Of a DNA stretch of 45,262 bases, positions 5,231 through 21,280 are shown piece by piece. The translations under genes were made by a program, and so were the position numbers. The stretch's first letter is position 1; every line of letters starts with the position of its first letter. This DNA is from a virus: IMG/VR virus record IMGVR_UViG_3300031673_000114, positions 1 through 45,262 of that record; one strand, given 5' to 3'. The notes under the pieces are model-generated. The model was not told the origin of the DNA. It did no database searches and saw only the letters and a program-made list of their open reading frames with translations.

Positions 5231-5644
5231 ATGCCACTTCTTGACATGGGCATTACCTACGATAAGGGAATATACAGGGTTAGTATCCAGACCGCTCCCA
5301 TTATCGAAAACTTCTTCAAAAGTACAAGTATAAAAACCTCGGTATGGGGTGTCTCGTACTATACCCTCGAAAAGAGTCAATCCTCTCGCAAAATTATAGT
5401 AGAGGGAGTTGCCGAAATTAATGGAGAGCGATTTTCCGTCGAGCGTGTACTCTATTTAAACCGTTTCGGATTTGAATTTCATCCCGAAAATGTCTCTGCG
5501 CTTCGCAGTGTGGGAATTTCGGATGGGATTATTCTTCAATGCTCTTCATCCGCTCTCTATTCAAGGGCACTCCTTAACCAATTCTGCCAGAATATGGCAG
5601 AGGCATGTAGTGTTATTAAGCATCTAAGCAGGAGAGCGTCATGA
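5231..5644 (+). CDS. Hypothetical protein, first gene of the amidoligase cassette
   Basis: RBS cacaaaaaaggagctaatcATG. The stop overlaps the amidoligase start (ATGA at 5641-5644). No recognisable motif. Confidence 0.7.
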   Translation: MPLLDMGITYDKGIYRVSIQTAPIIENFFKSTSIKTSVWGVSYYTLEKSQSSRKIIVEGVAEINGERFSVERVLYLNRFGFEFHPENVSALRSVGISDGIILQCSSSALYSRALLNQFCQNMAEACSVIKHLSRRAS

Positions 5645-6354
5645 AACTACAAGTAATAACCGCATTCGCTCCCGAAATAGAGGGGGGATGGAATCTTGAG
5701 GCAATGGATCCCCAAGATGTGGATGGCAGAACAGTTTACGAGGAATGGCGCATTAAACCCGATGGGTCGGTAACCACATCTCACGGACAACCACGAGAGG
5801 CCGTTCCTCTATTGCCATTTCACACATTAAAACGTTTTGAAGAGGCATGGAAAGAGGTTAAACCCTATTTTCTGAGTGTTGATTCCTCCTGCGGCCTTCA
5901 CATCCATTGTAGTTTCAAAACACCAGACGGATATCGTGTCTGGAGTGATCCCAAAATGTTCGAGTTGCTCCATGAACACGATAAGGAAATTACAGGAGAT
6001 GCCTATCCACAACTTGTTGAGCGGCTAATAGACCACCCCACTACTTATGCAAAACCACTGAACGAGGCCGAAAAGCGCCATTTAAAGGAGATTGCAGAGC
6101 GGGGGATACCAGTAGACCTTGACCGAAATCGCGAGGTCAACTGGAATGCTTTTCGTAAATACGGAAGTATCGAGTTTCGCTATCTTCCGGGAGTTCCCGC
6201 AGGTTTGGTGTATCCCGTAGTCTCGAAATTTATAAAGGTGGTCGATGCGCTTACATTGGAAAACCTGCAGCAAAACGGCATTGATATCAGTCCGATCAAA
6301 TTAACCATTAAAGACATCGAAGAATTAGAGGAGATAAAACTATGTGTCGAGTAA
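5641..6354 (+). CDS. Putative amidoligase (glutamine-synthetase/GCS2-like fold, Amidoligase_2-type)
   Basis: Motifs read in the translation: APEIEGGW (ExE strand), CGLHIHCSF (HxH), GSIEFRYLPG (EFR). As I recall it, this pattern defines the Pfam Amidoligase_2 family. The adjacent Ntn amidotransferase-like gene is the family's typical neighbour. Confidence 0.65.
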   Translation: MKLQVITAFAPEIEGGWNLEAMDPQDVDGRTVYEEWRIKPDGSVTTSHGQPREAVPLLPFHTLKRFEEAWKEVKPYFLSVDSSCGLHIHCSFKTPDGYRVWSDPKMFELLHEHDKEITGDAYPQLVERLIDHPTTYAKPLNEAEKRHLKEIAERGIPVDLDRNREVNWNAFRKYGSIEFRYLPGVPAGLVYPVVSKFIKVVDALTLENLQQNGIDISPIKLTIKDIEELEEIKLCVE

Positions 6355-7148
6355 CGGCCCTGTTTGGTACAAGCAACGAGAAGGTGACAAAGGAACAATG
6401 TGCCAAACAGCTTCTAATGAACGGAATGAAGCATAATCAAGATGGCTATTTCATTAAGGCGGGAGCGGCCTCTTTGCGTACACTTGATAAAGCACAGTAC
6501 GTCAGGTATTTCAACAAAAAACAAAGCGTAATCGCTTCTGCCCCAATGGTATTCATGCACCAGAGAACAAGCACCAATAAGGTATCGCAGGAATTTGTGC
6601 ATGGATGGAAACTGGAACAATACTATTGTGCCCATAATGGCGTCGGTTCACACATCCCCTCAATAGCGACGGGTAACGATTCCCTCGACTTATTCAGTGG
6701 CATTGATACCGATTCTGCTGATGCCGTGAAAGCGGCTTATGTTCGCGATGGCGATGGAACGTATTTTATGCTGGATGAGGAGGGCAGCGGCTATATCTTC
6801 GGGGAAACCATCTATGTTGCGGTTCCTGATGCCAATCATGAATTATGGGCATTTTCTTCAAAAGAGGACGTGTTTAATAATAAGTACGAGTACTTTACCG
6901 AGAAATTAGTAAAGGCAATCGGAGTAATTAACATCGTAGAAAAGGAGAACCAAAAACTCTCGTTTCCTACATGGACGGCCGTCGAACTTAGAGATACCTT
7001 ACTGGTCTTAAAGACTGGCGTCCCCATTCGTGAGGAACGACTGCCTCAAGTGACAGCCTATTCCACTCTTTATAACGTTCATGCGGGATACACCGAATAT
7101 GCCGAACGGAGTATTGTAAGACAAAACACGATATATGACGGTGAATAA
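6342..7148 (+). CDS. Class-II (Ntn) glutamine amidotransferase-like protein or thiol peptidase
   Basis: The N-terminus MCRVTALFG has the Cys2 nucleophile exposed after Met removal. Also MHQRTSTNKVSQEFVHGW (HxRxxT...N.H) and CAHNGVGSH (HNG). It overlaps the amidoligase by 13 nt. Confidence 0.65.
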   Translation: MCRVTALFGTSNEKVTKEQCAKQLLMNGMKHNQDGYFIKAGAASLRTLDKAQYVRYFNKKQSVIASAPMVFMHQRTSTNKVSQEFVHGWKLEQYYCAHNGVGSHIPSIATGNDSLDLFSGIDTDSADAVKAAYVRDGDGTYFMLDEEGSGYIFGETIYVAVPDANHELWAFSSKEDVFNNKYEYFTEKLVKAIGVINIVEKENQKLSFPTWTAVELRDTLLVLKTGVPIREERLPQVTAYSTLYNVHAGYTEYAERSIVRQNTIYDGE

Positions 7149-7225: not shown

Positions 7226-8152
7226 ATGTATGTAGAAACAGTTCAGGACTTTCTGGACACTCAAATCCCTCTCGTGGAACTCGACATCAACGCCAAGATA
7301 ACGATGGGAACAAGCGAGGAGGTAGAATATAGACGGGCTTCTATGGCGGGAGACTGTCCCCGTAAACTGGCATTTTTTAAAATCAATGCACCACGCCCCG
7401 TGATGGCAACACGGGGTTCGGCAGTACTTGCAACGGGTTCGTGGATGCACTGGCTTATTATGGAATGGGCACGACGAGGTTATACCTTAAAGGAGCGCCT
7501 GTTTACAATGGTAACGGAAATCGAGGGCGATTTAAGCCAAAAATGTGTCCTGCCATCGGGATATGAACTTAAATCGGTGCATCCCGATCTTCTTGTTAAT
7601 CATCAACAACTCGGTAGGGGGGTTGGCGAGATTAAAACCCTTTCAAACTATGGCTTTCTTGAAATGGTAAATGGCGAAGTAGAATACCGATATCGCGTAC
7701 AGGCCGCAATCAACATGTATGCCTCCAACTCTTCCCATGTATTCTTTTGGCCATATCGGAAGGAGACCTCTAATATCCGTGAAAGAATCTTCTTCGACGG
7801 CGTTCCAGGGTCGGTTAGTAGCTCTTATTACTCTAAAAACGTATCTTTTCTAAACGACGAGCAAAACGTTGCTATTGATGTGGCTAAAATTATTACCGAT
7901 GTCGATAACCTATATCAGGCCATTGACGAAATTACCACCATAGAACAGGTCTTACACGCTTTCCCGGAAGCCTCTAATCCGTTTATATGTACCAACACAA
8001 GATCAAACTGTCGCAAATGCGGAGGAACGGGACAGGTAATTAAACCAGAACTAAAGTTTCCCTGTTCTTACTGTCCATTTATGAATCTGTGTTGGAGGGT
8101 TTCCGAAATGAAAATTGACGAGGGAAGTCCTCATTATTATGTCTCGCGTTGA
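7226..8152 (+). CDS. Cas4/RecB-family PD-(D/E)XK exonuclease with Fe-S cluster cysteines
   Basis: HPDLLV...GEIKT gives the D...ExK motif and YRVQAAINMY gives QxxxY. The N-terminal Cys (GDCPRKL) plus C-terminal CSYCPFMNLC (C-x2-C-x5-C) match the Cas4/AddB four-Cys arrangement. RBS taaggagacattATG. Confidence 0.75.
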   Translation: MYVETVQDFLDTQIPLVELDINAKITMGTSEEVEYRRASMAGDCPRKLAFFKINAPRPVMATRGSAVLATGSWMHWLIMEWARRGYTLKERLFTMVTEIEGDLSQKCVLPSGYELKSVHPDLLVNHQQLGRGVGEIKTLSNYGFLEMVNGEVEYRYRVQAAINMYASNSSHVFFWPYRKETSNIRERIFFDGVPGSVSSSYYSKNVSFLNDEQNVAIDVAKIITDVDNLYQAIDEITTIEQVLHAFPEASNPFICTNTRSNCRKCGGTGQVIKPELKFPCSYCPFMNLCWRVSEMKIDEGSPHYYVSR

Positions 8153-9294: not shown

Positions 9295-9321
9295 GGGTGG
9301 GGAGGCGAACCCTCCTCACCC
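9295..9321 (+). other. GC-rich hairpin (11 bp, one G-U) after gene 9004-9261
   Basis: gggtggggagg-cgaac-cctcctcaccc. The G-U pair (9300-9316) is only possible in the plus-strand transcript. The U-tract is weak, so this is a terminator or an RNA-stability element. Confidence 0.45.
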
Positions 9322-9349
9322 AAGAATTTAAACCGTTTAAGGAGAATAT

Positions 9350-9436
9350 ATGGAAAGGCAACACAGCTATATCGTGTACTACGAGTCGCCTACGGCGAAA
9401 GAGCAAATAGACATCGAACTAAAACGGGGGGGCTAA
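9350..9436 (+). CDS. Possible 28-aa micro-protein
   Basis: aaggagaatatATG, then MERQHSYIVYYESPTAKEQIDIELKRGG. The stop abuts the next start. Short, so low confidence. Confidence 0.3.
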   Translation: MERQHSYIVYYESPTAKEQIDIELKRGG

Positions 9437-17938: not shown

Positions 17939-18157
17939 ATGTACGGCAAACGGTATCGTTGTAATACCTGTGGTAGTGAAACTACATCTCAAGAGGGACT
18001 GAACGACCCCTCTGGCTCTCAAGTGATGGGCAGTTGCGTATGCGGTGGTACGTATAGCTTCATCGGAGAAGAGTACGACCAAGACTTCATTGATCAGCAA
18101 AACTATGAACGCCAACAAGACAGAGAATATGAAGAACGTCACCGTAGGGATTACTAA
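17939..18157 (+). CDS. Hypothetical zinc-ribbon protein (72 aa)
   Basis: RBS aaaagaggaagatATG. CNTCGS...CVCGG followed by an acidic tail. Confidence 0.7.
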   Translation: MYGKRYRCNTCGSETTSQEGLNDPSGSQVMGSCVCGGTYSFIGEEYDQDFIDQQNYERQQDREYEERHRRDY

Positions 18158-18164
18158 ATATCAC

Positions 18165-18186
18165 GCGGCTCCATGGAAGGAGCCGC
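18165..18186. terminator. Hairpin at the convergence point of the two arms (candidate bidirectional terminator)
   Basis: gcggctcc-atggaa-ggagccgc, a perfect 8-bp GC-rich stem between the stops at 18157 (+) and 18221 (-). Flanking U-tracts are poor. Confidence 0.5.
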
Positions 18187-18220
18187 ACTTGACACCGCGC
18201 ATTTTGTCTAACAGACGTGA

Positions 18221-19573
18221 TTACGTTGTGGGACTCAGTACTTGTTGGACAAGGGGTTGTCCCATCCTTTCAAGGGTTGCCCTCCCAATATCCTTTCGAT
18301 AAAATCCCTTTGAACTTGGAATAATCCGTTCTAATATTCGCAGTGCCTTGGTATTTGCTAAGGATATATCCTTATCTTTTCCCGTAATTGTTAGGGCATA
18401 TCCGAATGAAGAGGCTATTCCAATCTGATTAGTGTAATCCCCAAGAGTCATCTTCTTAACTTCCGAGTAATGCACATGTTTCATATCCTCGGGGGTTAAT
18501 CGGGAAAAATCTATAATCTCGTTATAGAAAGACTCCTTAACGTTGTTGACGGTTTCATAGGGAAACGTCGGAAAGGCAAGCGTCAGGACGATACCCTTGT
18601 TGTCTGTATCGAACATATATCCATCGGTATATCCGGTCGCCAAACGGGACATAAAGGAGCCAAAGGGGACATTGAGAAGTTCTAAATATAGATCACTTAT
18701 AGGATATCCGAAGCGTAGGGTGTGTTCTAAGAGATAAATACCATTCGTATTTACAATACAATTAGCATCTACACATCCAACATAGCGGGTTTTTGCAAGA
18801 ATAGGGGTCAGAGGATGAACCATTTCAAGAAACATCCTGTTCAGTCCAAGCTGGAAGTACATCCCTGTTCCCATTTCACCTGTGCTCAGACCGTGCCCAC
18901 CATCCAAAAGCGCCTTATTCTCGAAGTTGATTTCTGTTAGAATCTGGCCATCCTGTCTAATCCAATCGGCCCCATTAAACCATCCCGCTATGGCTACCTC
19001 GTATCCCTCGATGTAATCTTGCACCACAATCTGACCATCCAAGGAATGTTGATACTTGCCTTTAATAGTCAAGAGATGCTTAATTAAATCTTCAGAATCA
19101 TCACGAGAAGCCTTCCAATTTAATGTTTTGGGAAGATTGTCCGTCTGCTTCACAATGTATTTGCGAGGACGCCCCTTGATGTACTTAATGGTGTCATCAA
19201 TAGATTTAACCTCGATAGAAGTTGGTACTCGAATACCAAGTTTCTTGGCAAGTTGAGTTCCCCAGATACGGTCTTTTTCTAATCTATCTCCCACCTCGTT
19301 AGAACCCACCACGCGATAACCGTTCTTACGCATTGCGCTTTGCAACGTTCCAAACTCCGATCCATCAAATATAAAGATGGCATCAATGTTACGCTTGATG
19401 AAATCTTTAAGGGGAGTCGAACTTGCATAGAATCGCTTAATATTTGGAAAGCCAGTCAGTACCTCGTTGAAGTACCTGTCCTTATTCCAAACATAGACGG
19501 TATTGCCCTCTTCTTCAAGTCGGTAGGCAAACCCCGCACATTCCATTGAACCGGAAATAATACAGAATTTCAT
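18221..19573 (-). CDS. PurD-like (glycinamide ribonucleotide synthetase family) ATP-grasp ligase
   Basis: Colinear by eye with E. coli PurD:
- MKFCIISGSMECAGFAYRL vs MKVLVIGNGGREHALAWK;
- GSNEVGDRLEKDRIWGTQLAKKLGIRVP vs GPTAGAAQLEGSKAFTKDFLARHKIP;
- VVQDYIEGYEVAI vs VIEEFLDGEEASF;
- STGEMGTG vs NTGGMGAY;
- LLEHTLRFGYP vs VIEFNCRFGDP;
- C-terminal FYRKDIG vs FCRKDIG. Confidence 0.75.
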   Translation of the reverse strand: MKFCIISGSMECAGFAYRLEEEGNTVYVWNKDRYFNEVLTGFPNIKRFYASSTPLKDFIKRNIDAIFIFDGSEFGTLQSAMRKNGYRVVGSNEVGDRLEKDRIWGTQLAKKLGIRVPTSIEVKSIDDTIKYIKGRPRKYIVKQTDNLPKTLNWKASRDDSEDLIKHLLTIKGKYQHSLDGQIVVQDYIEGYEVAIAGWFNGADWIRQDGQILTEINFENKALLDGGHGLSTGEMGTGMYFQLGLNRMFLEMVHPLTPILAKTRYVGCVDANCIVNTNGIYLLEHTLRFGYPISDLYLELLNVPFGSFMSRLATGYTDGYMFDTDNKGIVLTLAFPTFPYETVNNVKESFYNEIIDFSRLTPEDMKHVHYSEVKKMTLGDYTNQIGIASSFGYALTITGKDKDISLANTKALRILERIIPSSKGFYRKDIGRATLERMGQPLVQQVLSPTT

Positions 19574-19725
19574 CGTTTGGTTTTCTTACTCGCAAAATCG
19601 CGTAACTGCTTGATTGTCATAGACTTAGCCATCTTTGCCGCTGGCCCCTTGCAAGAACTCCTGTTCCCTCTCTTGCAGGAAAGCGCCATACCAGCGGTGC
19701 GTCTTTGTTTAGCAGAATAGGGCAT
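19570..19725 (-). CDS. 51-aa basic peptide translationally coupled to the ATP-grasp gene (DUF3008-like)
   Basis: Read by hand on the minus strand: ggaggtgtattATG, then MPYSAKQRRTAGMALSCKRGNRSSCKGPAAKMAKSMTIKQLRDFASKKTKR. Its TGA overlaps the ATP-grasp ATG (ATGA). It resembles the small MPxKSKxQQ..AGAAL.AKRG...SM...L.EFA family that I believe is Pfam DUF3008. Below the track cutoff. Confidence 0.55.
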   Translation of the reverse strand: MPYSAKQRRTAGMALSCKRGNRSSCKGPAAKMAKSMTIKQLRDFASKKTKR

Positions 19726-19737
19726 AATACACCTCCA

Positions 19738-20268
19738 TTAAAATGGTAGAAATTTAGTGATGGTCGATACCAACTTAGCGATTATACTAATCTGCTTCCA
19801 GATACCGGTCTTAATAATGACGTAAACCACCATCGCTACGACGATTAGCCAAAGCCAATCCACAAAAAGAGTCTTAATGCGTTGCCAGAAAGTAAGTTTA
19901 TGAATCACCATCGGAGTGACCGTTACCGTAGTATCGTGCGTAATTGTGGTATCAATGGGGGCTGGCCTGACGGTGATAGCCACCGTTCCCTTCCGCAAAT
20001 TCACCGTTGCGGTTGCTACCGTGTCTCCGGTGGAATCGGTTTTAACCGCACTAATAGGTCTGTCAGGAACAATTAGCGCCGAATCCTTGCCGCTTATCGA
20101 GTCAATAGGCGCAATTGCCACCACGGGGCTGGAAGGGGCCTTTAAGGTGTCTTTAATTGTTGGGGGTTGGATGTGAACCGGGGTCACGGTTATGACCTCA
20201 ATTGTTTTTTGGGTAGAAGCACATCCGACAAGAATCCCGATACTTAACAATAACAATAGGTATTTCAT
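19738..20268 (-). CDS. Candidate unimolecular spanin (N-terminal lipoprotein signal plus C-terminal TM anchor)
   Basis: MKYLLLLLSIGILVGC has the lipobox LVGC. The middle is T/V/I-rich. The C-terminal TM helix is WLWLIVVAMVVYVII. This is the architecture of phage T1 gp11-type u-spanins. It sits directly downstream of the lysin candidate. Confidence 0.55.
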   Translation of the reverse strand: MKYLLLLLSIGILVGCASTQKTIEVITVTPVHIQPPTIKDTLKAPSSPVVAIAPIDSISGKDSALIVPDRPISAVKTDSTGDTVATATVNLRKGTVAITVRPAPIDTTITHDTTVTVTPMVIHKLTFWQRIKTLFVDWLWLIVVAMVVYVIIKTGIWKQISIIAKLVSTITKFLPF

Positions 20269-20726
20269 ACTGGAGCCTCCTCTGACATATAGGTTATAGA
20301 AATCTGTTCGTGTTCATCCCAGGTGGTTCGCAGTTGGGACATCAGGTGATTGAACTCGCCAACGCTCTGTAAAATAATCTTTGGGTCTGCTGGGTTATCT
20401 AAGGTGGTTCCAACCAAGAGACAGCCCTCCGTATCCTTTGGGTAATTTCCCCAATGAATACGAACACCAGAGAATCCGGGCACATTCACGATATGTGGCA
20501 TTATTCGTTGGAAATGTGGTGAATAGTCAAGGATAACCCGATAAGTACCATAGGGAATGGCCGTTTCATCAACGACCTTCTTCTCGTAAATTTCCTGCAT
20601 GGTCATCCAATTGAAGAGGCCGCGGTCTTTATCTTCCAAGCCATAACAAAACGGGATGCCATCGACTAAAATCTGGCTAATGGTTCTATCGTCCAAGAAC
20701 CATTTTCGGTAAACCGTTAGCTTCAT
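20265..20726 (-). CDS. Candidate cell-wall hydrolase (DUF5675-like; YkuD-type H...GC motif)
   Basis: VRIHWGNYPKDTEGCLLVG matches the L,D-transpeptidase-fold catalytic pattern H-x(9-20)-[ST]-x-G-C. It sits next to the spanin candidate with an ATGA overlap. Confidence 0.45.
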   Translation of the reverse strand: MKLTVYRKWFLDDRTISQILVDGIPFCYGLEDKDRGLFNWMTMQEIYEKKVVDETAIPYGTYRVILDYSPHFQRIMPHIVNVPGFSGVRIHWGNYPKDTEGCLLVGTTLDNPADPKIILQSVGEFNHLMSQLRTTWDEHEQISITYMSEEAPV

Positions 20727-21280
20727 GATGCACTACCTCGATTATCTATTCTGTCTATTAGGGGTCTCATTCTGTTGTAAACAATAGCAAGCGATTTGAC
20801 ATCGTGTACGCAATGTTTAACAATTGTATCCATACACTTTCTATCGCCCTCTAACGACGCTTTCAACCAGAGTCGCAATTCCAAGGGTGTCTTATGTACA
20901 GGGATTTCCAGCCAATCTATAATAGCCGCCAAAGAGTTCCTTCCCAGTTTCAAATGAAATCGTGCCAATTTAACAGGATCGACAAATTTTTTCAAGCGAA
21001 GGGAGACTGGCATATCGTACTGAATACACTTCGCATTCATAAAGCCTTTGTCAAATCGCTGTCCGTTATGGGCTACAAGAATATCGTATTTATTGAGTTC
21101 CTCCATGATTTTCTTAACAACCAGTGAATCGTCCGAACGGTGTTTACTCCACGTTCGTTCCTGATCGGCTCTGATAATAGTGGTTTGCGTCTTTCCATAT
21201 TCTTGAATTACCGCACAGAGAACAATTGCGTTATCCGCATAAAAACCACTGGTTTCTAAATCAAAGATGCCAGTTCGCAT
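20723..21280 (-). CDS. DEDDh-type 3'-5' exonuclease (DnaQ/RNase T-like)
   Basis: Exo I is GIFDLETSG, Exo II is LVAHNGQRFDKGF, Exo III is HCVHDVKSL (H-x4-D). Confidence 0.65.
   Translation of the reverse strand: MRTGIFDLETSGFYADNAIVLCAVIQEYGKTQTTIIRADQERTWSKHRSDDSLVVKKIMEELNKYDILVAHNGQRFDKGFMNAKCIQYDMPVSLRLKKFVDPVKLARFHLKLGRNSLAAIIDWLEIPVHKTPLELRLWLKASLEGDRKCMDTIVKHCVHDVKSLAIVYNRMRPLIDRIDNRGSAS

Follow-up and report, generated by a model that had tools for sequence, protein, structure and literature searches.

The subject of this report is a pair of genes in a 45,262-nucleotide stretch of viral DNA (positions 1 to 45,262 of IMG/VR record IMGVR_UViG_3300031673_000114; the whole stretch is referred to as the window). 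Together they make up a compact, 1.5-kb system on the minus strand, in which a gene for a polybasic mini-protein of 51 amino acids (aa) from the DUF3008 family (Pfam PF11450; 19570..19725) is followed by a gene for a 450-aa PurD-like ATP-grasp carboxylate-amine ligase (18221..19573), the final gene of the leftward late arm. The ligase is predicted, with high confidence, to be an active enzyme of a paralogue family recognized by the signatures E-x-T-x-RFGYP and TGEMGT, and not a glycinamide ribonucleotide (GAR) synthetase.

The two open reading frames (ORFs) overlap in an ATGA at 19570..19573 (minus strand), made of the ligase ATG (19573-19571) and the mini-protein stop TGA (19572-19570). Direct reading of the sequence found no canonical Shine-Dalgarno sequence before the ligase ATG, where the letters are AGTAAGAAAACCAAACG-ATG, which is consistent with translational coupling of the ligase to the mini-protein. 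The leader of the mini-protein on the minus strand is TAA-T-GGAGG-TGTATT-ATG, in which the GGAGG ribosome-binding site (19736-19732) begins 1 nt past the stop of an upstream ORF for a 176-aa lipoprotein and ends 6 nt ahead of the mini-protein ATG. A preliminary description of this DNA, made from the letters alone, had placed both minus-strand ORFs, the ATGA overlap and the GGAGG as they are given here.

Active site and family of the ligase

The last gene of the late arm had been aligned by eye with PurD along its whole length in the preliminary description, and searches by sequence and by fold bear this out. All of the significant sequence matches in the PDB were PurD proteins (best match 2yrw, E 1.2e-9), with the alignment covering residues 82-438. 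In Pfam, residues 102-291 matched GARS_A (E 1.1e-8; 35.6 bits against a cut-off of 27) and residues 386-431 gave a sub-threshold match to GARS_C (E 0.0016), with no match to GARS_N; no match was found in PHROGs. The AlphaFold2 (AF2) model, made with 66 homologues, had a predicted local distance difference test score (pLDDT) of 95.8 and a predicted template modeling score (pTM) of 0.92. The top 15 PDB matches of this model in Foldseek were all PurD/GAR synthetase (GARS) structures (E 2e-28 to 2e-23; template modeling [TM] scores, 0.67-0.79), with sequence identities of just 15-18%, and were followed by biotin carboxylase, PylC, and PurK. No close viral structure was found in BFVD, where the best TM scores were 0.47-0.56. 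By model and fold search, the ligase thus shares with PurD (EC 6.3.4.13; PDB 1GSO, 2YW2, 2YS6, and 2QK4) the full-length four-domain N-B-A-C ATP-grasp fold.

Residue equivalences were taken from a profile alignment of the ligase to E. coli PurD (probability, 99.4%). Elements shared with PurD include the ATP-binding Lys and Glu (K142 and E192 in the ligase), the 'E/D-H/N-K' motif (E218 and K220; D214 and K216 in PurD), a Glu at E283 (E286 in PurD), the Arg of R-F-G-x-P, which serves the acyl-phosphate and the glycine carboxylate (R287; R290 in PurD), and the C-terminal YR-x-DIG (PurD FCRKDIG-like motif; FYRKDIG at residues 424-430). R102 stands at a position occupied by Lys in PurD. In contrast, the GGREH, RFGDPE, NTGGMG, and E-x-N motifs and the GGRVL arginine of PurD are all changed in the ligase, and the first Mg-ligand position has regained an Asp.

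Several of these changes fall at positions with assigned roles. Arg13, Glu14, and Arg385 are the residues proposed to hold phosphoribosylamine (PRA) in human GARS, with Arg13 and Glu14 of the G-G-R-E-H loop as the proposed phosphate and ribose contacts (PMC2978367). The corresponding residues of the ligase are Glu11, Cys12, and Tyr392. The GGREH loop position reads S-M-E-C-A (R11E, E12C), and the GGRVL arginine aligns to G391-Y392, its position being Tyr in the phage clade and mostly Val in the cellular branch of the family. The PRA-binding residues, the fate of which the preliminary description had posed as a question, are therefore not kept. The PROSITE motif PS00184 (R-[LF]-G-D-P-E) is replaced by RFGYPI at 287-292. 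Glu292 of Aquifex PurD contacts glycine (PMC8880213), and the change to RFGYPI entails the loss of this Glu, the aligned residue of the ligase being Ile. The glycine pocket is partly conserved (D to E at 218 and Glu to Ile at 292). The NTGGMG loop of PurD is STGEMGT (230-236) in the ligase, with Glu233 invariant; E-x-N is E-x-T; and Asp269 occupies the canonical first Mg-ligand position, where PurD has Gly. D70, E99, and E22 are further invariant acidic residues.

Judged from these alignments, the acceptor site is switched from basic and phosphate binding to neutral or acidic. Because the basic residues of the PRA site have been replaced by acidic or neutral ones, the acceptor is probably a non-phosphorylated, cationic amine.

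The sequence and structure comparisons make it extremely improbable that the gene encodes a genuine GARS, serving as an auxiliary metabolic gene (AMG) that boosts purine synthesis of the host. That assignment would agree with the whole-length fold and homology, with the name 'phosphoribosylamine--glycine ligase' given to relatives by the JGI and NCBI pipelines, and with a virome paper reporting purD as an AMG of viruses of the candidate phyla radiation (CPR). However, the score against the curated purD equivalog model TIGR00877 was 75.9 bits, far under the cut-off of 288, all of the proposed PRA contacts and the Asp of the PROSITE motif RFGDPE are lost, and the family is abundant in CPR bacteria and DPANN archaea, which mostly do without de novo purine synthesis. 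Furthermore, the same features led to the rejection of haloarchaeal 'extra PurD-like' proteins as GARS (Brown et al. 2011; PMC3261824). The lost PRA contacts and the low equivalog score also support the expectation in the preliminary description that a role in bulk purine synthesis was unlikely. For members of the RFGYP/TGEMGT family, 'phosphoribosylamine--glycine ligase' calls that are counted as purine AMGs in viromes are almost certainly wrong.

A word-indexed search with the ligase returned 773 relatives, headed by one identical protein and 13 proteins of 37-49% identity on phage-like contigs. These were followed by a long series at 30-34% identity, in proteins of ∼430 aa in which GARS_A and GARS_C are present and GARS_N is always absent; their sources are Patescibacteria, DPANN archaea, Omnitrophota, Elusimicrobiota, Woeseia, and others. 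The ligase aligns with the cellular members over at least 95% of its length (E 1e-57 to 1e-43; 30-34% identity) and is far nearer to them than to the PurD proteins in the PDB (E 1e-9; 15-18% identity). A profile scan that covered one genome per species found the family in at least 572 genomes; among the genomes listed were the cultured haloarchaea Halorussus ruber and Halorubrum salipaludis, Nitrososphaera, Woeseiaceae, Acidobacteriota, Planctomycetota, CPR, and DPANN. HMMER gave 1338 clusters (50% identity) at E ≤1e-3 and 79 at E ≤1e-30, with only ∼7 clusters belonging to the phage clade. The relatives detected by tblastn in INPHARED were only 4 and distant.

Signature motifs were counted on the best 120 relatives. 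E-x-T-x-R-x-G-x-P was present in all 120, with RFGYP in 91 and RFGDP in 1; TGEMGT was present in 105, and GGREH in none. The window ligase carries this signature, with EHTLRFGYP at 283-291, TGEMGT at 231-236, and no GGREH.

The haloarchaeal 'extra PurD-like' proteins Hlac_1553 and rrnAC0307 were judged not to be GARS in an earlier study (Brown et al. 2011, Biol Direct 6:63; PMC3261824). They share with the ligase the absence of a GARS_N match, a divergent N-terminal P-loop, and an R[LF]GDPE Asp that is not conserved. The identical diagnostic features, together with the presence of haloarchaeal genomes (Halorubrum and Halorussus) among the matches, suggest that the ligase belongs to the same family as Hlac_1553 and rrnAC0307. 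The haloarchaeal proteins differ in that they are cellular, ∼430 aa long, and without a reported partner, whereas the phage clade has a polybasic mini-ORF upstream. In the literature searched, no functional proposal for the 'extra PurD-like' family since 2011 was found, nor any link between PurD-like ligases and phages; the enzyme family has been known only as an orphan with erroneous annotation.

Pairing of the ligase with polybasic mini-proteins

The mini-protein contains 15 Lys/Arg and 1 Asp/Glu, has a pI of 11.5, and ends in ..KKTKR. Its assignment to DUF3008, which the preliminary description had offered with a question mark, was confirmed in Pfam (38.9 bits against a cut-off of 24; E 9.6e-10), with residues 4-50 matching positions 3-51 of the 57-position profile. 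The AF2 model (pLDDT 81) has helices at residues 5-19, 28-35, and 38-45 and a disordered K/R tail. The small ORF is conserved, with 155 detectable DUF3008 relatives and an identical 51-aa protein on 4 contigs, the longest of 45,276 bp. The family consensus is MPAKSxxQxxAxGxALAxKRG...SMSExQLRDFAKKKKK. Neither sequence nor fold gave a useful relative in the PDB, DUF3008 was not found in INPHARED, and no publication on DUF3008 was found in the literature searched.

About 14 phage-clade loci were collected, with ligases 38-49% identical to that of the window, and 12 distinct loci could be evaluated. A polybasic ORF (48-56 aa; pI 10.5-12) lies directly upstream of the ligase in 9 of these 12, separated by 0-8 nt or overlapping by 4 nt. 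The upstream protein is of one of two types. DUF3008 precedes the ligase in the window, L005, and L017/L020, with a 4-nt start/stop overlap in all of them. A DUF2188-like protein takes its place in L002, L004, L006/L019, L018, L021, and L123, with gaps of 2-8 nt or, in L123, a 4-nt overlap as in the window. In the three other loci there is no basic mini-ORF upstream: the ligase follows a 2200- or 615-aa protein in L001 and L124/125 and other small ORFs in L003/L022. The polybasic C-termini of the large upstream proteins (L001 and L124) were considered as built-in substrates and rejected because they are not consistent.

The DUF2188-like mini-proteins follow the pattern MPYAIRKRGSKWVV..HSTR.KA.RHLRALYAN...RRKKRR and match Pfam DUF2188 below threshold (E 0.002-0.003) and phrog_3684 (E 6e-7). 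Members of both peptide families have Met-Pro at the N-terminus, a K/R tail at the C-terminus, and 0-3 acidic residues; homology between them was rejected (hhalign probability, 0.2%). The co-occurrence of the peptide with PurD-like genes, raised in the preliminary description, therefore holds for polybasic ORFs as a class, while DUF3008 itself is found in 3 of the 12 loci and also stands elsewhere without the ligase.

The ligases paired with DUF3008 are only 39-42% identical to one another, which indicates that the pairing is old. The DUF2188-like partners go with a single ligase clade (46-88% identity). Based on these distributions, DUF3008 was apparently the ancestral partner, which was replaced once and lost twice. 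In the window, in L005, and in L017, the pair closes the late arm behind the lysis genes, L017 having the same order of lysis genes, DUF3008, and ligase; in L006, it is located next to genes for an Hjc-like nuclease and recombination. In the literature searched, a cassette that joins a mini-protein to a PurD-like ligase and has exchanged its partner for a non-homologous one appears to be undescribed.

It is improbable that the adjacency is inherited synteny or a convenience of expression, with the ligase as a stand-alone moron. The phages have further genes around the pair in common (families F1, F3, F4, F6, and F9), the ligase clades track the type of partner as they would under vertical descent, and three subclades have no basic partner. 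However, the pair persists while the flanking genes differ, the identity among DUF3008-paired ligases is low, and drift would not easily put an analogous but unrelated mini-protein in the place of the partner.

The gene logic of the pair, an ATP-grasp ligase coupled to a tiny, highly charged protein, is shared with RimK and S6 and with LysX/ArgX and LysW, and is the only feature shared with them. The conserved adjacency of ligase and small-protein genes that is expected of a RimK/LysX-type pair was seen in 9 of the 12 evaluable phage loci. The window ligase differs from the RimK/LysX clade in that its best sequence and fold matches place it in the PurD clade. Moreover, the partner is polybasic and so of opposite charge to the RimK/LysX partners, and its K/R C-terminus has no Glu carboxylate to offer. 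With 0-3 acidic residues, such a partner would need to be the amine acceptor or to use its alpha-carboxylate. A graspetide (microviridin-type) precursor, as suggested in the preliminary description, is ruled out by the same low count of acidic residues (1 in the window peptide and 0 in that of L004). PGM1-type peptide ligases, known from pheganomycin, are ATP-grasp enzymes that join a small acid to the amine of a ribosomal peptide. They are like the window ligase in the proposed chemistry only, a carboxylate donor and a ribosomal peptide amine, and differ in belonging to another ATP-grasp clade and to a natural-product context.

We propose, tentatively and at somewhat less than an even chance, that in these phages the ligase works on, or obligatorily with, the co-translated mini-protein, the simplest form of this proposal being acylation of lysine amines late in infection. 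The 450-aa protein would be a catalytically competent ATP-grasp amide ligase descended from PurD that no longer makes glycinamide ribonucleotide. It would use ATP to convert a small carboxylate to an acyl-phosphate and would pass the acyl group to a cationic primary amine in place of PRA. Translational coupling would have the ligase made late and in step with the ∼50-aa mini-protein, most likely as its acceptor substrate, through lysine side chains or a terminus, or as an obligate partner of the enzyme. The product would be an acylated or aminoacylated basic mini-protein, plausibly associated with DNA or the virion. The cationic amine acceptor, the mini-protein as substrate, and the virion association are all inferred.

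Several observations weigh against this proposal. The ligase is not always present where DUF3008 is: in other phages, DUF3008 is found in a head-morphogenesis module (L036) or immediately ahead of a protein of at least 1374 aa (L037), and in bacteria it stands alone in a Maritalea chromosome (L038). The three phage subclades L001, L124/125, and L003/L022 have the ligase and no basic mini-ORF. No conserved small basic neighbor was found for the cellular homologues, as only 11 of 79 loci had such an ORF and these were all dissimilar and spurious looking; the core chemistry in the at least 572 cellular genomes thus needs no such protein. At its 3' end, the mini-ORF has purine-rich Lys/Arg codons, the role of which could simply be that of a ribosome-binding site for the ligase. 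Related phages share some synteny, so that part of the adjacency is inherited. Lastly, the cellular subclade nearest the phage enzymes has operons that point to a small-molecule amine, as described below.

The cassette provides a handle on an orphan enzyme family of hundreds of archaeal and bacterial species, some with minimal metabolism. Because the enzyme and a candidate substrate are encoded together, the chemistry of the family is directly testable. PurZ is a re-purposed PurA. If the mini-protein is the substrate, the pair would represent a new protein modification and a comparable re-purposing of a core purine enzyme.

Operons, fusions, and inteins of other family members

The cellular subclade nearest the phage enzymes has the ligase gene in one operon together with those for a pyruvoyl decarboxylase of the AdoMet_dc family (130 aa; Pfam E 1.9e-17) and an EamA/DMT transporter. 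This arrangement was found in at least 7 distinct loci (L014/L015, L024/L025, L026, L028, L029, L041, and L042). The operon of L014 also contains a gene for a CxxCxxCC protein. The arrangement resembles a pathway for a small amine conjugate and suggests an amine derived by decarboxylation as the substrate. AdoMet_dc linkage as a trait of the whole family was rejected, as it is confined to this one subclade, and no general neighbor of the ligase was found across 80 diverse cellular genomes.

The main rival explanation, which we regard as somewhat unlikely, is that the phage enzyme is likewise a small-molecule ligase, which joins a carboxylate such as an amino acid to a free polyamine-type or S-adenosylmethionine-derived amine, and that the mini-protein is merely co-expressed and acts separately, for example, in DNA binding or charge neutralization. 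Descent from PurD implies small-molecule substrates, a protein partner is missing from most cellular members, DUF3008 is found on its own elsewhere, and the nearest cellular subclade has the operons just described. In addition, some relatives (P0280 and P0257) have an N-terminal extension of ∼120-180 aa with a D-x-D-G-V motif reminiscent of HAD phosphatases, without a significant Pfam match. However, two unrelated polybasic mini-proteins in the same slot in 9 of 12 phage loci would be left unexplained, as would an acidic micro-ORF in a distant viral clade. Furthermore, the AdoMet_dc/EamA linkage is absent from the 80 diverse genomes outside that subclade, and no phage locus has a gene for an amine-producing enzyme adjoining the ligase. 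Lysine side chains and polyamines are chemically alike, and thus a single hypothesis, that of a cationic primary amine acceptor, would fit both the operon and the peptide evidence.

The distant viral clade is 24-27% identical to the window ligase and keeps E.T.R.G[YF]P and TGEMGT. A micro-ORF of 24-30 aa with the acidic motif ..DDEE.LDPxGE[PT]E lies upstream of the ligase in 3 of its 4 loci: L007 (∼7688-7765; MMFTEPDDWDEDDDELILDPWGEPE), L009 (∼9320-9395; MPNEIVLDPEDDEEVLDPYGEPES), and L010 (9514-9636; ..MPNEVSLDQDDDEEVLDPVGETETYPSIAA). The fourth, L127, has none, and in L009 the micro-ORF is separated from the ligase by an inserted HNH endonuclease gene. LysW carrier proteins end in EDWGE, which the ending ..LDPxGE[PT]E of the micro-ORFs recalls.

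A SET-domain gene (Pfam E 1.1e-9) was located within ∼1 kb of the ligase in 7-10 of the 80 cellular genomes, mostly of CPR (L059, L063, L088, L090, L091, L101, and L103). P0325 (578 aa) is a fusion of ligase and SET domain, the SET part of which matches the type found in the neighboring genes (E 2e-13). SET domains act on protein lysines, and the SET fusions and neighbors hint at an action of the ligase on basic chromatin or ribosomal proteins in cells. In its widest form, the proposal is of an unrecognized post-translational modification, in which phages recruited from the orphan family a ligase that acylates or aminoacylates the lysines or a terminus of a tiny polybasic protein, probably DNA or virion associated, and in which cells may use the ligase on basic chromatin or ribosomal proteins. 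This wide form is speculative, and we consider it doubtful at present.

A single viral protein of 1236 aa, P0313, is a continuous fusion of a portal protein (N-terminal SPP1_portal/Phage_portal), a full-length ligase (residues ∼595-1020; ∼40% identical to cellular members), and a minor head protein (C-terminal Phage_Mu_F). This domain order suggests a capsid-internal ligase in at least one virus. Like the acidic micro-ORFs and the SET-domain genes, the fusion would point to proteins as targets of the ligase. It also bears on a further explanation, that the mini-protein is a non-substrate subunit or adaptor, which might anchor the ligase on nucleic acid or inside the virion, so that after ejection its target would be DNA, RNA, or a protein of the virion or host. 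Stoichiometric coupling through ATGA is typical of complexes, DUF3008 without the ligase stands in the head-morphogenesis module of L036 or before the large protein of L037, and in L001, L007, L011, L033, and L124 the ligase gene comes after genes for very large virion-type proteins. Yet an adaptor would be expected to form one conserved family, and there are two unrelated ones; the ligase has a near-neutral or acidic pI (7.6 in the window; clade median, 5.6) and no obvious nucleic-acid-binding domain; and the portal fusion is a single example. It therefore seems unlikely that the mini-protein is an adaptor of this kind.

Inteins, recognized by Hint, LAGLIDADG, and intein-splicing domains, split several ligases at the position of residue ∼236 of the window ligase, in the TGEMGT loop, or 285, in E-x-T. 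Relatives with inteins include P0336, P0275, P0272, P0377, and others of 740-1120 aa. The placement of the inteins underlines the functional nature of the two motifs.

Neighboring genes and the amidoligase cassette

A GC-rich hairpin at 18163..18188 (no strand assigned) parts the ligase from the convergent arm. It was found by a terminator scan as a consensus match only, begins 33 nt past the ligase stop, and has a 10-bp stem with 7 GC. This hairpin is a probable bidirectional terminator that closes the late operon. On its other side, the last gene of the rightward arm (17939-18157, plus strand) ends 6 nt ahead of the hairpin and encodes a 72-aa, zinc-ribbon-like protein with CxxC...CxC cysteines and an acidic, Tyr/Glu/Arg-rich tail, for which no family match was found.

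Upstream of the mini-protein, the 176-aa lipoprotein (19738..20268, minus strand) has a lipobox (LVGC) and a C-terminal hydrophobic transmembrane segment. It had been called a spanin in the preliminary description. The lipobox and transmembrane segment agree with that call, and the homology is weak (phrog_812, Rz-like spanin; E 0.0018); the protein is a probable unimolecular spanin. The next minus-strand ORFs (20265-20726 and 20723-21280), in the presumed lysis region, include one for a DUF5675 protein (E 5e-28), possibly an endolysin. The same region (20265-21280) has an RNase_H_2 or DNA polymerase exonuclease-like gene that separates the tail genes from the lysis genes and has homologues near the ligase in L002, L005, L006, and L019.

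Two genes in a different arm of the genome had been linked to the ligase in the preliminary description, as parts of one dispersed three-enzyme pathway. The ORF at 5641-6354 encodes an amidoligase, by matches to phrog_2443 (E 2.6e-6) and, slightly below threshold, Pfam PF12224 (E 6e-4); a single-protein scan of IMG/VR found no relatives of this protein. The ORF at 6342-7148 (plus strand), previously described as a PurF-type glutaminase, overlaps the end of the amidoligase gene and begins MCRVTALFG. It had no matches in Pfam, NCBIfam, PHROGs, PDB sequences, INPHARED, or IMG/VR, and its N-terminal Met-Cys and its neighboring gene make it a candidate glutaminase only. A published study describes amidoligase (PF12224) with a class-II glutamine amidotransferase (GATase) as a known, widespread, stand-alone phage cassette, with phiEco32, LUZ24-like, and OM43 phages as examples (PMC10580990, citing Iyer et al. 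2009). The cassette and the ligase are both amide-bond enzymes of the same genome, but their folds are unrelated.

The single pathway was not borne out. In the 6-10-kb flanks of ∼14 related loci, which were the regions compared, no homologue of the amidoligase or the putative GATase was found near the ligase. The INPHARED phages that have an amidoligase relative (of Arthrobacter, Bacillus, and Ralstonia) are disjoint from those that have a PurD-like gene. The phage of the window is itself novel, its large terminase being at most 27% identical to any INPHARED entry.

Beyond the cassette, the gene at 7226-8152 (plus strand) encodes a 308-aa protein with a C-terminal CxxCxGxG zinc finger and weak similarity to lambda exonuclease. 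It is common to most of the ligase-bearing phages, with homologues in L002, L004, L005, L006, L019, and L023, and lies only ∼1.2 kb downstream of the ligase in L002, L006, L019, and L023. The sharing of this gene probably reflects common phage ancestry and not function.

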